A stretch of 44,920 nucleotides of DNA. It comes from a virus. Its lineage: Duplodnaviria; Heunggongvirae; Uroviricota; Caudoviricetes. The DNA lies in IMG/VR virus record IMGVR_UViG_3300022173_000112, positions 66,916 to 111,835 of that record. The stretch is one strand, 5' to 3'. The notes beneath the pieces were generated by a model that was not told where the DNA came from, did not search any database, and saw nothing but the letters and a program-made list of their open reading frames with translations. Shown here one piece after another: positions 9,110 to 13,295 of this stretch; positions within the stretch are counted from its first letter, which is position 1, and each line of letters opens with the position of its first letter. Position numbers and translations under genes: made by a program.

Positions 9110-9191
9110 ATCACGCGAGGTCGTATACAACTCTGGAGTAACATCCAGCGGCGGTCCATCTCCGAAAGAGAAACGGATGTCGCGGCGTGAT
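9110..9191 (+). ncRNA. unassigned structured RNA candidate A
   Basis: Closing stem atcacgc/gcgtgat; hairpins ctgga-GTAACA-tccag and tctc-cGAAA-gaga; ends 4 nt before tRNA-Arg. Confidence 0.45.
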
Positions 9192-9195
9192 ATCT

Positions 9196-9269
9196 GGCGG
9201 CATAGCTCAATTGGATAGAGCGTCGGTCTACGGAACCGAAGGTTGGGAGTTCGAATCTCTCTGTCGCTA
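9196..9269 (+). tRNA. trnR: tRNA-Arg(ACG)
   Basis: Cloverleaf GGCGGCA/TGTCGCT, D-arm GCTC, anticodon stem TCGGT-CT ACG GA-ACCGA, T-loop TTCGAAT; no encoded CCA. Confidence 0.92.
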
Positions 9270-9274
9270 ATGTA

Positions 9275-9356
9275 GGGAACGTGGCCGAACGGTAAGGCAC
9301 AGCCCTGATAAGGCTGCGTGCGAAAGCACTAGCAGGTTCGACTCCTGCCGATCCCA
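9275..9356 (+). tRNA. trnI: tRNA with GAT (Ile) anticodon and a type II long variable arm
   Basis: GGGAACG/CGATCCC, D-arm GCC/GGC, CAGCC-CT GAT AA-GGCTG, variable arm GTGC-GAAA-GCAC, GCAGG-TTCGACT-CCTGC, A73. Confidence 0.85.
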
Positions 9357-9357
9357 A

Positions 9358-9463
9358 TAGTTGATTCGCGTCAGGGTCAACTAGACGCACTTCGGGTGCG
9401 GATGCAACTGGGCTTACATAAGCAGGCTTACCAGAGCTATGCAAGACTCCTAACGGAGTAGTC
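9358..9463 (+). ncRNA. unassigned structured RNA candidate B (could be the spoVG leader)
   Basis: Consecutive hairpins tagttga/tcaacta, cgcac-TTCG-ggtgcg, ctgg..gctta/aagc..ccag and actcc-TAAC-ggagt. Confidence 0.4.
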
Positions 9464-9465
9464 CG

Positions 9466-9819
9466 ATGGCAATCACAATCACCGAGATCAATATTCGGAA
9501 GCCCCAATATCTTGATTCTCGGCTCCTGGCGTTTGTTACTGTAGTCTTCGATAACTGCTTCGCAATCACGGACCTGAGGCTATTGCAGCTGAAAGACGGT
9601 CCTTTCCTGGCGATGCCTTCGAAGAAAGCATCTACGCCGTGCCAGCATTGCAGACGTAAAAATACGTTTGATTGCAGGTACTGCGGTAAGTGCGGCAAGC
9701 TCTTGGAGTTCAAGGCGGAAGAGCATTTTGACGTAGCTTTTCCGATCAATAACGAGTTTCGTCAATTCATGCTACAGTCGATCCTTGAGAAATACAAGGC
9801 TGAGACACCTGTAGCATAA
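9466..9819 (+). CDS. spoVG: SpoVG family protein with CxxC/CxxC Zn-ribbon insert
   Basis: ITEINIR...LLAFVTVVFDNCFAITDLRLL...GPFLAMPSKK...HFDVAFPINNEFR; insert CQHC...CGKC. Confidence 0.92.
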   Translation: MAITITEINIRKPQYLDSRLLAFVTVVFDNCFAITDLRLLQLKDGPFLAMPSKKASTPCQHCRRKNTFDCRYCGKCGKLLEFKAEEHFDVAFPINNEFRQFMLQSILEKYKAETPVA

Positions 9820-9825
9820 TCGTAT

Positions 9826-9905
9826 CGGTGAGTGATTTGTGGCATTAAGGCTCAGGCGTCCAACCCTTCGGGGCGTGACCAGAAAGTGTCTCCACATACT
9901 CACCG
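9826..9905 (+). ncRNA. unassigned structured RNA candidate C
   Basis: Long irregular hairpin: cggtgagt/actcaccg, tgtgg/ccaca, apical ccc-TTCG-ggg; ends 4 nt before tRNA-Thr. Confidence 0.45.
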
Positions 9906-9909
9906 TGTT

Positions 9910-9983
9910 GCCCGTATAGCTACAATTGGTAGAGCGCCTGCCTTGTAAGCAGGGGGTTGAGAGTTCGAGTCTCTCTGCGGGCT
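9910..9983 (+). tRNA. trnT: tRNA-Thr(TGT)
   Basis: GCCCGTA/TGCGGGC, CCTGC-CT TGT AA-GCAGG, TTCGAGT. Confidence 0.92.
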
Positions 9984-9991
9984 TTTGATTT

Positions 9992-10080
9992 GGGCGCGTG
10001 TGCCGAGCGGCAAAGGCGGCATGCTGTAAACGTGCTGTGGAATAGCTATCCACTCGCAGGTTCGAGTCCTGCCGTGCCCA
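9992..10080 (+). tRNA. trnY: tRNA-Tyr(GTA)
   Basis: GGGCGCG/CGTGCCC, GCATG-CT GTA AA-CGTGC, long variable arm GTGGA/TCCAC, TTCGAGT. Confidence 0.9.
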
Positions 10081-10099
10081 CTTCTTTTGGAGTGTCAAC

Positions 10100-10333
10100 A
10101 TGCTGAACTGGTTTCTCTCCCTGTTCAAAAAGTATCGGGATGGTGAGTCCCGAGTCGGCCGAATCAATTGGCACCTGGATCATCAACGGTATACCGTTGC
10201 TCTCTGTGGTGGCAATGAAATCGTGACAGCCTACAATGTGAATGACCATGAAGAAGTCATTCCACGCGGATCGGCTGTTACGCTCATCCACCAAAACGAT
10301 ACGTGGTACTTCCATGTGCCGGTGTGGCTATGA
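10100..10333 (+). CDS. hypothetical protein
   Basis: 77 aa with GGAG RBS; ATGA overlap with the HAD gene. Confidence 0.65.
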   Translation: MLNWFLSLFKKYRDGESRVGRINWHLDHQRYTVALCGGNEIVTAYNVNDHEEVIPRGSAVTLIHQNDTWYFHVPVWL

Positions 10334-11800: not shown

Positions 11801-11805
11801 CTATG

Positions 11806-11934
11806 CCTGATCGTCTTACCTTTGGCAAGGCAGCCGGTCAGGACAGCGGTGGATTAGAGCGTGTGGGGCTACACCACCAGGCTTATTACGAGTAGAGAGG
11901 TTGTGCCAACAGCCATACTGTAATCGGTCAAGCC
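11806..11934 (+). ncRNA. unassigned structured RNA candidate F (three hairpins)
   Basis: cctgatcg/cggtcagg (11806-11842), ggtgg/ccacc (11848-11878), and ggctt-attac-agta-ggttgt GCCA acagcc-tact-gtaat-aagcc (11880-11934). Confidence 0.4.
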
Positions 11935-11955
11935 CTTCCTTTTAGGAGATTCACA

Positions 11956-12393
11956 ATGATCGCAGGTACTGTCCTTATTTCAAGGAACAATGACGAGGCT
12001 TTGAACACAAGTCCTGGTCATTGGAACCATTGTGCAATCTACGTGGGTGGTGGACGCATCATCCATTCCCTACGTGATCAAGGTGTTGTCGAAACAGTCT
12101 ATGGCGAATGGCTCGCTTATGACTGTACTTGGGTATCCTTGATTCCTATTGATGTGGCGGTTGGATACAAGGCTGCATTCAAAGCGACACAGCTTGTAGG
12201 CTTGCCGTATCGTACTCTGTCAAGCGTGTTTCTGCGTGCTAGGAACCTTAGCCGTGGAATCAATTGTGTTGATGCAGCGGTCAGGGTTCCTTACGAGTTT
12301 GCTTTAGGGAAGAGCCTCAGTTCGATTCATTGGCCTGACCATGTAATCGAACTCACAGGTGTGTTCACAAAAGGACCGACAAGTTCAGACTGA
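11956..12393 (+). CDS. permuted papain-like NlpC/P60 amidase (YiiX/YebB-like)
   Basis: GTVLISR, GHWNHCAIYVG (His first), VGLPY, INCVD (Cys second); AGGAG RBS. Confidence 0.85.
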   Translation: MIAGTVLISRNNDEALNTSPGHWNHCAIYVGGGRIIHSLRDQGVVETVYGEWLAYDCTWVSLIPIDVAVGYKAAFKATQLVGLPYRTLSSVFLRARNLSRGINCVDAAVRVPYEFALGKSLSSIHWPDHVIELTGVFTKGPTSSD

Positions 12394-12398
12394 TTCTC

Positions 12399-12473
12399 GG
12401 GCCGTTAGCTCCTAACTGGTAGAGCGCCTGCCTTGCAAGCAGGAGGTTGTGGGTTCAAATCCCACACGGTCCA
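12399..12473 (+). tRNA. trnA: tRNA-Ala(TGC)
   Basis: GGGCCGT/ACGGTCC with G3:U70, CCTGC-CT TGC AA-GCAGG, TTCAAAT. Confidence 0.94.
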
Positions 12474-12485
12474 TTGGAGATTGAA

Positions 12486-12647
12486 ATGGAACTTTTAATT
12501 AAGAAGTGGCGTGCCGAAGCAAATGATTTGGGGCGTCGCTTAAGAAGTGGTTCTTACATTGACCAACAACAACGTGCTGCTTATAGTGCGAAGATGAAAA
12601 CTCTTCGTGCTTGCATCAAAGAACTCAAAGGGATTGGTTATGGCTAG
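12486..12647 (+). CDS. hypothetical protein (53 aa)
   Basis: Start at MELLIKK after GGAG; helical and basic. Confidence 0.55.
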   Translation: MELLIKKWRAEANDLGRRLRSGSYIDQQQRAAYSAKMKTLRACIKELKGIGYG

Positions 12648-12816
12648 ACCATTGCTAGACTTGGTTGATCAAGTTGCGAAGGAACCAACGAAGAGAGACT
12701 TGCAAGAACTTCGACTAAGAATCGAGGCGATCCAACGCGGGGTTGATGATTACCCGCCAGACCTTTGCATGGTGCATGTTAAGGATATCTTGCAAGGAAA
12801 TTGTATCACTTATTGA
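12640..12816 (+). CDS. hypothetical protein (58 aa)
   Basis: Start at MARPLL, overlapping the previous stop. Confidence 0.55.
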   Translation: MARPLLDLVDQVAKEPTKRDLQELRLRIEAIQRGVDDYPPDLCMVHVKDILQGNCITY

Positions 12817-12821
12817 AACAT

Positions 12822-12894
12822 TCCCCGGTAGCACAACTGGTAGTGCAACTCGCTGTTAACGAGTAGGTTGTAGGTTCGAATCCTACCTGGGGAG
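12822..12894 (+). tRNA. trnN: tRNA-Asn(GTT)
   Basis: TCCCCGG/CTGGGGA, ACTCG-CT GTT AA-CGAGT, TTCGAAT, G73. Confidence 0.94.
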
Positions 12895-12896
12895 CT

Positions 12897-13058
12897 TGTG
12901 TGGACAAGACGGTTAATCGGCTAGTCAATCGAAAGCCGGGAGACAGGCTCGTCCGGGCCATCAGCACTCGTCAGAGTATTGATGGCCCGGCCTAGACCTC
13001 CGGATAGTGCGATTGCGGGTTGACTCGTTGCGACTAGCCCTCGAAAGCAGTCCACACA
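12897..13058 (+). ncRNA. unassigned structured RNA candidate G (162 nt)
   Basis: Closing stem tgtgtggac/gtccacaca, ggctagtc/gactagcc, and a 17-bp hairpin ccgggccatcagcactc-GTCA-gagtattgatggcccgg. Confidence 0.65.
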
Positions 13059-13062
13059 TTAA

Positions 13063-13134
13063 CGGTGCGTTGCTGGAAGGCCATAGCACGTGGTTTGGGA
13101 CCACGGGATGACGGTTCGATTCCGTCCGTGCCGA
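13063..13134 (+). tRNA. trnP: tRNA-Pro(TGG)
   Basis: CGGTGCG/CGTGCCG with C1-G72 and A73, CGTGG-TT TGG GA-CCACG, TTCGATT. Confidence 0.88.
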
Positions 13135-13135
13135 A

Positions 13136-13295
13136 TGCTGATGAACGCGGAGTCATGTCGCGTACATGAATTAGCGAGAGGGATACTGTGAGCCGCCGGG
13201 AATCCCAGCGGGTGTACACTCACGGAAACGAATCTGTTTCGCAGGTAGTCGTCCCAGGGATATATCTCCTGGCTTCCGGAATCCTGCCATCAGCA
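13136..13295 (+). ncRNA. unassigned structured RNA candidate H (160 nt)
   Basis: Closing stem tgctgatg/catcagca; inner catg/catg, ctgtgag/ctcacgg, ccgc/gcgg, gaaac/gtttc, ccagg/cctgg. Confidence 0.6.

Follow-up and report, generated by a model that had tools for sequence, protein, structure and literature searches.

Structured non-tRNA RNA modules between the tRNA genes of an uncultured freshwater phage

The tRNA island of an uncultured freshwater phage holds, in the gaps between its tRNA and protein genes, folded RNAs that fit no catalogued family. The window that we analyzed is the last 44.9 kb of the 111,835-bp virus record IMGVR_UViG_3300022173_000112 from IMG/VR, which is rated complete, and the island occupies window positions 9104-13349 on the plus strand with ten tRNAs, eight small protein genes, and eight non-coding gaps, G1 to G8. 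An earlier note, made from the sequence of the window, had seen structured RNAs in these gaps. This observation is confirmed, with six elements (G2 to G6 and G8) supported by compensatory changes in relatives and two, G1 and G7, remaining candidates; the interpretation that the note placed on it is partly supported. Altogether, our results support the view that the gaps hold real, structurally constrained RNAs that lie on the strand of the tRNAs and abut tRNA ends. We consider it rather likely that they are co-transcribed modules, cut out by tRNA processing as discrete small RNAs, that act in trans as protein-binding or tRNA-mimicking RNAs. The elements, with the gaps that contain them, are:

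9110-9191, plus strand: G1 (gap 9104-9194), candidate RNA of ~82 nt, flanked by the dGTP diphosphohydrolase gene and tRNA-Arg; terminal helix of 7 bp (P 0.041)
9357-9465, plus strand: G2 (gap 9357-9465), hairpin HP1, hairpin HP2, and a conserved SpoVG leader; ten lineages aligned
9826-9905, plus strand: G3 (gap 9820-9909), ~80 nt; 9-bp closing helix, 3-nt bulge, second helix of 5 bp, and a variable hairpin
10812-10907, plus strand: G4 (gap 10811-10912), ~96 nt; five-helix junction; nine lineages, eight aligned
11664-11722, plus strand: G5 (gap 11658-11727), ~60 nt; tRNA-like fold; four lineages aligned
11804-11936, plus strand: G6 (gap 11802-11955), ~135 nt; three hairpin domains; eight lineages aligned
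12897-13058, plus strand: G7 (gap 12896-13062), candidate RNA of ~162 nt occupying the space from tRNA-Asn to tRNA-Pro; terminal helix of 9 bp (P 0.005)
13136-13295, plus strand: G8 (gap 13135-13300), ~160 nt; multi-helix RNA, last module before the terminator; four lineages aligned

Comparison with relatives carries this conclusion. Using SpoVG as a handle, we collected ~15 distinct uncultured-phage lineages from IMG/VR, JGI, ENA, NCBI, and Logan assemblies (their loci are denoted by L numbers), and homologues of the elements were sought by BLAST of the gaps against the fetched loci. Common to the relatives is a backbone of DUF5906 primase-helicase, D12 methyltransferase, RNase T-type exonuclease, SpoVG, tRNA island, and convergent structural genes. 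Six elements have homologues, and their alignments have the following properties:

G2: 11 lineages, most of the close clade; 10 sequences aligned, 27 pairs, 94.0% of cells paired, 12 pairs changed on both sides
G3: 3 lineages (window, L011, L010); 3 sequences, 24 pairs, 95.8% paired, 10 pairs changed on both sides
G4: 9 lineages (window, L010, L018, L022, L025, L031, L033, L034, L046); 8 sequences, 26 pairs, 97.5% paired, 12 pairs changed on both sides
G5: 4 lineages (window, L022, L025, L033); 4 sequences, 19 pairs, 97.4% paired, 6 pairs changed on both sides
G6: 8 lineages (window, L010, L002, L018, L022, L025, L033, L046); 8 sequences, 44 pairs, 96.6% paired, 13 pairs changed on both sides
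G8: 4 lineages (window, L031, L033, L034); 4 sequences, 23 pairs, 94.6% paired, 8 pairs changed on both sides

When the percentage of paired cells, the pairs or cells changed on both sides, and the covariation score were compared with shuffles, the observed values were equalled in 0 of 500 shuffles for G3, G4, G5, and G6 and in at most 1 of 500 for G2 and G8, figures that come from shallow alignments (three to ten lineages of one phage clade) and are not probabilities; the count of further pair types was not always separable from the shuffles. In slid controls, with the partners shifted by 1-3 columns, 25-58% of cells paired and the compensated pairs numbered 0-5 (0-1 for G4). Read on the opposite strand, many of the conserved G-U pairs would turn into A-C, and the RNAs are accordingly assigned to the strand of the tRNAs. 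Judging from these alignments, structure is under selection in all six families. Covariation in related phage contigs, a check that the earlier note had named, is thus found for six elements, and its count of at least eight RNAs stands for these six but is overstated for G1 and G7, which have no homologue in any fetched locus or in the rest of the genome. Among the candidates for further members, a match of the first G6 pattern in L003 was rejected as arising by chance within coding sequence, and those to G8 in L046 and L017 were rejected because the match consisted of the common terminator only. The distant SpoVG loci L013-L016 have no island DNA in common with the window, and the trypsin-like protein of the island, used as query in the viral contig collection, found no relatives.

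The folding of the window sequence itself bears on the elements unevenly. A terminal complementarity of 7-9 bp had been ascribed to the gaps, and six of the eight (G1, G3, G4, G5, G7, and G8) do have terminal helices of this length (G-U allowed), each of them rare among 1000 dinucleotide shuffles (P 0.005-0.041), whereas G2 and G6 have no such closing helix. The helices begin 1-2 nt past the preceding tRNA or stop 3-5 nt ahead of the next one; boundaries within 1-5 nt of tRNA ends, as originally described, are therefore borne out by the helix and tRNA coordinates. Relative to shuffled controls, the fold is clearly more stable than expected for G1 (z −2.75), G2 (z −3.38), G3 (z −2.40), G7 (z −5.04), and G8 (z −2.83) but only weakly so for G4 (z −1.3), G5 (z −1.1), and G6 (z −1.4), so that energy alone says little about these three gaps. 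The same three, with the weakest fold energy, are the elements with the best comparative support.

Each supported family has its own architecture. In G2, hairpin HP1 has a 10-bp stem in which nine pairs covary and an invariant loop, HP2 also covaries, and the 3′ part is a nearly invariant SpoVG leader, the last hairpin of which pairs the Shine-Dalgarno sequence GGAG. As G2 lies directly upstream of SpoVG in every lineage that carries it, it is better read as a SpoVG leader with an upstream hairpin than as a free RNA. In G3, five pairs of the 9-bp closing helix covary, the 5-bp helix is invariant, the junction sequences are conserved, and the variable hairpin is capped by differing tetraloops among the three aligned lineages. 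All five helices of G4 contain at least one covarying pair, and a strictly conserved purine-rich internal loop surrounds its small hairpin. G8 retains its closing helix, the adjacent 5-bp helix, and the 5′ domain while its middle varies in length; the sequence of the 5′-domain hairpin differs among lineages and is always paired.

G5 resembles part of a tRNA. The 3′ strand of its 6-bp acceptor-like terminal helix is continuous with a 6-bp stem carrying a 7-nt loop, forming a 12-bp stack, and a 4-bp D-like arm has an 8-nt loop. A 10-nt stub with a weak 3-bp hairpin stands in place of the anticodon arm, which a true tRNA would have, and also unlike in a tRNA the sequence of the T-like loop is non-canonical and the Rfam tRNA model gives no match to G5 at E≤10. 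In the other direction, a covariance model of G5 has weak matches to a true tRNA-Ala (E ~1), aligned through the acceptor, T-arm, and D-arm parts, and, at E 0.035, to a 52-nt minihelix of acceptor plus T-arm in L034. L022 and L025 share the 53-nt core of G5 at 96% identity, against ~88-91% for the adjacent genes. Within the stub lies the 10-nt palindrome TGATGCATCA, at window 11688-11697, which is kept in three of the four G5 members.

G6 combines three hairpin domains with a helix in which the 3′ tail pairs with the loop of the invariant hairpin 2. Two pairs of this helix covary among the eight sequences, and G6 probably contains a pseudoknot formed by these two segments. What still aligns at the DNA level between the window and the distant L002 is limited to SpoVG, three tRNAs, the terminal part of the RNase T-type gene that lies upstream, and G6, which is thus conserved to about the same degree as the tRNAs.

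The positions of the elements among relatives point to exchangeable cassettes. G4 follows tRNA-Val in most lineages and tRNA-Ala in L018, and directly 3′ of it lies a tRNA in four of the nine lineages (tRNA-Glu in three, tRNA-Asn in L018) and an open reading frame (ORF) in the others. G6 follows tRNA-Gly or tRNA-Thr and is enclosed by two called tRNAs in L025 and in L018; in L002, tRNA-Thr lies on its 5′ side and, on its 3′ side, a tRNA-like stretch recognized by eye that neither ARAGORN nor Rfam calls. In the window and L011, G3 stands before tRNA-Thr; in L010 and L004, its place is between tRNA-Asn and tRNA-Pro, so that the slot of G7 contains a G3-type element in L010; other relatives have ORFs there. 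G5 is always found just before tRNA-Gly and G8 always right after tRNA-Pro. Relative to L010, which is ~90% identical, the window has clean insertions of G1, of tRNA-Ile, of tRNA-Tyr with an ORF, of a mini-ORF with tRNA-Glu, of G5, of two small ORFs, and of G8, and the presence or absence of G1, G5, and G8 has sharp edges at tRNA ends. G8 is missing as a clean indel from L022 as well as from L010. Each element is single-copy in the 111.8-kb genome. The changed neighbors of G3, G4, and G6, together with the clean indels, argue for cassettes rather than leaders.

Elements of the same kind, unrelated in sequence to G1-G8, lie in gaps of relatives at L031 9080-9154, L018 8298-8377, and L034 6999-7094, with closing helices of 6-9 bp and z-scores of ~−3.0 to −3.3; the one in L031 has an architecture like that of G5.

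None of the eight gaps fits a known RNA family. Scanned with Rfam 15, a check that had been proposed for these gaps, the whole window gave tRNAs only at the gathering threshold, and the extra matches in the island region (8900-13500) at E≤10 were all at chance level: a terminator cluster, antisense matches on two tRNAs, and a match to one snoRNA model at 10919-10964 that is assigned to G4 and has E 4.6 and 18 bits against a gathering score of 80. The statement that the gaps match no tmRNA, RNase P, SRP, or recognizable riboswitch accordingly stands. ARAGORN called no tmRNA, Rfam gave no match in the island at E≤10 to 6S RNA or to self-cleaving ribozymes (hammerhead, twister, pistol, hatchet, HDV-like), and covariance models of GOLLD, ROOL, and other Rfam phage RNAs had no match in the window; the same search in eight relatives gave tRNAs only. 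Missed tRNA genes were also considered for the gaps and rejected, with no match to the tRNA model (RF00005) or to tRNA-Sec in any of the eight at E≤10; the tRNA model finds tRNAs in relatives that ARAGORN misses and is thus sensitive enough for this purpose.

Wider searches with G3 to G6 added little. Core patterns of G4 and G5 gave 0 matches in the viral contig collection, and those of G5 and G6 gave 0 matches in 185,579 prokaryote genomes, so that neither host-encoded homologues nor homologues in a wider range of phages were seen, in both cases by exact-pattern scans, which are insensitive. A pattern scan of the viral contig collection for G3 found L004 only, and the G3 covariance model found no further members and did not match G7, the closing helix of which looks alike. 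The G5 covariance model found no further full members and did not detect the G5-like element of L031. All six families are new to Rfam; as small RNAs within a phage tRNA region they are of a known kind, and the density of RNAs, their modular exchange, and the anticodon-less tRNA mimic make the island an unusual variant of that kind.

In our model, the island is an RNA-rich accessory operon: besides tRNAs and genes for small proteins it contains at least six independent modules of non-tRNA RNA, all arranged head to tail before one terminator. Every feature at 8600-13349 is on the plus strand, and the bidirectional terminator at 13308-13349 is the only strong terminator-like site in 6900-13600; with this terminator after G8 and none comparable inside the island, a single polycistronic transcript is the simplest reading. 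Cleavage by RNase P at the 5′ ends of flanking tRNAs and 3′ trimming on the other side would free modules of ~60-160 nt. Each module is predicted to fold alone, and in most of them the closing terminal helix would join the 5′ and 3′ ends and protect both, making the released RNAs stable. The modules would then most likely work in trans, with G5 copying the acceptor/T-arm helix of a tRNA.

Several considerations count against this model. The relatives belong to one clade, and their kinship inflates the shuffle statistics; the slid controls, which retain this relatedness, point the same way as the shuffles and argue against kinship as the whole explanation. G1 and G7, for which no homologue was found, have folding energy in their favor (z −2.75 and −5.04) and, although they fit the pattern of the island, remain candidates. 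G7 has a minimum free energy of −73.2 kcal/mol and occupies a slot known as a point of exchange. G1 folds about equally well on the two strands (z −2.75 on plus, −3.07 on minus). Release by tRNA processing is something that we infer from the geometry of the gaps. Finally, G2, always 5′ of SpoVG, may be purely cis-acting, and G4, G6, and G8 lie directly before an ORF in some lineages and could double as leaders.

This last point leads to the main rival explanation, whereby the elements act in cis on the polycistronic transcript, as translation leaders, as folding insulators against mispairing of tRNA precursors, or as protectors of mRNA ends, and have no function once released. A cis-acting role fits G2 well, given its constant place before SpoVG and the pairing of the GGAG of the ribosome-binding site in its last hairpin, and it fits the other elements poorly. 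An acidic mini-ORF of the window has its sole Shine-Dalgarno sequence in the 3′ strand of the helix that closes G4, but where an ORF follows G4 in L010, L033, and L046, the ribosome-binding site is outside the helix, and in four of nine lineages G4 is directly followed by a tRNA. Similarly, G6 precedes an NlpC/P60-like gene in the window, L010, and L022, and G8 precedes a sulfotransferase gene in L031, L033, and L034; yet a tRNA directly follows G6 in two of eight lineages (three of eight with the by-eye stretch in L002), the G8 of the window precedes only the terminator, and G3 and G5 always precede tRNAs. A generic insulator or end-protector, moreover, needs no invariant loops or junctions such as the 53-nt core of G5 or the internal loop of G4. 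As an account of the island as a whole, we therefore regard the cis-acting role as unlikely.

Among readings that assign the modules a more specific task, the earlier note had proposed an RNA arsenal of decoys for anticodon nucleases or toxins, protein sponges, and ribozymes. Taken as a counter-defense set, with the ribozymes self-cleaving, such modules would be exchanged among phages like anti-defense genes. The mimicry of the acceptor/T-arm part of a tRNA by G5, without an anticodon, is in line with decoys, the turnover of cassettes at fixed slots resembles that of accessory and anti-defense loci, and RNA-handling proteins abound, with HAD_SAK_2, SpoVG, and an RNase T-type exonuclease at the island and its backbone and TROVE/Ro60 with a YrlA-like RNA elsewhere in the genome. 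No module, however, matches the model of a known ribozyme, antitoxin RNA, or Y RNA (Rfam, E≤10), no anticodon-loop mimic was identified, and nothing ties any module to a defense system, making the arsenal improbable in our judgment. A version with other partners is tempting to formulate and quite doubtful: the modules might be trans-acting RNAs of counter-defense or RNA metabolism, swapped at tRNA-flanked slots like anti-defense genes, with G5 as an anticodon-less tRNA mimic that, once cleaved by RNase P and given a CCA end, titrates a host factor that targets or senses tRNAs, while others partner the zinc-ribbon SpoVG or the phage Ro60. Very improbable, by contrast, is the idea that the gaps contain non-functional debris, that is, tRNA genes in decay or small palindromic insertions of mobile DNA, bounded by terminal inverted repeats, that have accumulated in a recombination hotspot. 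Sharp-edged presence and absence, terminal inverted repeats of 7-9 bp, tRNA remnants in relatives (the minihelix at L034 4254-4305 and a truncated tRNA-Val before G4 in L034), HNH endonuclease genes nearby in L022, L033, and L046, and the orphan status of G1 and G7 would all be expected from it. But across lineages, the internal helices change in a compensatory manner, with G-U pairs conserved and loops invariant, which shows selection on the RNA fold in six families; the elements are single-copy in the genome, unlike mobile repeats, and no gap matches the tRNA model at E≤10, although this model recovers tRNAs that ARAGORN missed in relatives. For elements other than G1 and G7, debris is close to refuted.

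Support for release of the modules as small RNAs, our preferred reading, can be sought among known systems. RNAC and RNAD of phage T4 are matured together with tRNA precursors. They are small non-tRNA RNAs from the T4 tRNA region (the species 1 and 2 stable RNAs, genes rnaC/rnaD) and their role is unknown (PMC3014915; PMC9697503); small RNAs in phage tRNA regions have thus been known since T4, still without a role (PMC3014915). The island elements are likewise non-tRNA RNAs between or beside phage tRNA genes and on their strand. Compared by description only, the island differs in that six to eight unrelated families, against two RNAs in T4, lie within 4.2 kb, interleaved with protein genes and exchanged as cassettes across relatives. 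GOLLD, which often lies near tRNAs, and ROOL, which averages 581 nt (PMC5737381), are also structured phage or prophage RNAs of unknown function; in contrast to the island RNAs, which are 60-160 nt long, heterogeneous, and so far from one clade, each is a single widespread family of several hundred nucleotides.

Bacterial and phage Y RNAs (YrlA/YrlB), to which Ro60/Rsr binds, offer a second comparison. Their ends are paired in a stem, they contain a tRNA-like module that mimics the T-arm and D-arm, and one Y RNA is a substrate of RNase P and the CCA-adding enzyme; they have a GNCGAAN0-1G motif near the 5′ end, and their genes lie on the strand of the Ro60 gene, no more than about 4 kb from it (PMC4201824). 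G5, too, mimics the acceptor/T-arm helix of a tRNA, and the same phage genome encodes TROVE/Ro60 and a YrlA-like RNA. Nevertheless, an identity of the island elements with Y RNAs was rejected on three features: the YrlA model (RF02553) finds nothing in window 8900-13500 at E≤10; the GNCGAAN0-1G motif, by inspection, is present only in the window copy of the G4 P2 hairpin, is absent from the other G4 members, and is conserved in none of the families; and the island is on the plus strand at ~76-80 kb of the genome, while the TROVE ORF is on the minus strand at ~38.6-40.1 kb, ~36 kb away.

The region around that ORF forms a second RNA island in the same phage, at ~38.6-45 kb of the genome, with the 483-aa TROVE/Ro60-type ORF (Pfam E 2.4e-14; L042 2153-3604, minus strand), the YrlA-like RNA (L042 4768-4861, minus strand; 40.9 bits, E ~1e-6, below the gathering score), and several tRNAs. 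This phage invests heavily in structured RNAs and RNA-handling proteins.

That the island of this phage clade fits six covariation-supported families, none of them in Rfam, into 4 kb cautions against assuming that the spacers of phage tRNA islands are empty, and tRNA punctuation may be a general route by which phages obtain many small RNAs from one promoter. G5, as a minimal tRNA mimic, and G6, as a 135-nt RNA with a probable pseudoknot, are candidates for specific protein binding, and the presence/absence variants among close relatives provide a ready-made comparative and genetic design.

The remaining features of the island and its upstream neighbor are:

8600-9103, plus strand: dGTP diphosphohydrolase-like gene (Pfam)
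9195-9270, plus strand: tRNA-Arg(ACG) (ARAGORN and Rfam tRNA)
9275-9356, plus strand: tRNA-Ile(GAU) (ARAGORN and Rfam tRNA)
9466-9819, plus strand: SpoVG-family protein with zinc-ribbon insert (Pfam SpoVG E 2.6e-20; zinc-ribbon matches weak)
9910-9983, plus strand: tRNA-Thr(UGU) (ARAGORN and Rfam)
9992-10081, plus strand: tRNA-Tyr(GUA) (ARAGORN and Rfam)
10100-10333, plus strand: 77-aa ORF upstream of the HAD_SAK_2 gene
10330-10746, plus strand: HAD_SAK_2 phosphatase gene (Pfam PF18143, E 2.4e-18)
10737-10810, plus strand: tRNA-Val(UAC) (ARAGORN and Rfam)
10913-10969, plus strand: 18-aa polyacidic mini-ORF, read from the sequence
10971-11044, plus strand: tRNA-Glu(UUC) (ARAGORN and Rfam)
11058-11657, plus strand: trypsin-like serine protease gene (Pfam Trypsin_2, E 1e-13)
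11728-11801, plus strand: tRNA-Gly(UCC) (ARAGORN and Rfam)
11956-12393, plus strand: 145-aa gene; NlpC/P60 match weak (Pfam E 0.0017, short of the curated cut-off)
12399-12473, plus strand: tRNA-Ala(UGC) (ARAGORN and Rfam)
12486-12647 and 12640-12816, plus strand: two small ORFs, not present in L010
12822-12895, plus strand: tRNA-Asn(GUU) (ARAGORN and Rfam)
13063-13134, plus strand: tRNA-Pro(UGG) (ARAGORN and Rfam)
13308-13349, both strands: bidirectional intrinsic terminator closing the island; 19-pair stem with T runs on each side

Pfam agrees with the SpoVG protein and the HAD phosphatase that had been read from the island, and three small island ORFs have no Pfam match. A blastn search of the island against 50,697 phage records, made for cultured relatives, returned mainly tRNA genes, with at most 3% of the island covered per record. 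The reading frame of the HAD_SAK_2 gene ends at 10746 and so overlaps the first 10 nt of tRNA-Val. The mini-ORF at 10913-10969 resembles the acidic N-terminus of a 50-aa ORF at L025 8118-8270 that ends in a hydrophobic tail, and from this likeness it is probably a truncated form of the 50-aa gene, cut where tRNA-Glu follows. tRNA-Ile(GAU), at 82 nt and 55.6 bits with Rfam, carries an extra arm, an unusual feature in a tRNA-Ile of the bacterial type; L010 has no counterpart of this tRNA.

Among the relatives, L034 contains products of tRNA decay, namely the 52-nt minihelix, an acceptor-like helix with a canonical T-arm, at 4254-4305 and the truncated tRNA-Val directly before G4 at 5714-5733. 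Two stretches of L002, at 7040-7135 and 7495-7570, are tRNA-like by eye with acceptor and T arms, one with a long variable arm and the other with an 8-nt anticodon-like loop, and are called by neither ARAGORN nor Rfam. tRNAs that ARAGORN misses and the Rfam tRNA model finds are located at L019 6492-6564, L020 5172-5244, L018 7761-7833, and L002 6684-6756, and one at L044 9694-9781, also missed by ARAGORN, was identified by eye only. A Sulfotransfer_4 gene follows tRNA-Pro in relatives. SBP_bac_10 proteins are encoded inside the islands of three relatives (L033 8749-9549, L034 8106-8915, L044 8878-9693), two of them with a weak N_methyl match. Proteins of this family (DUF1559) are expanded in Planctomycetota, and their presence in the islands may hint at the host.

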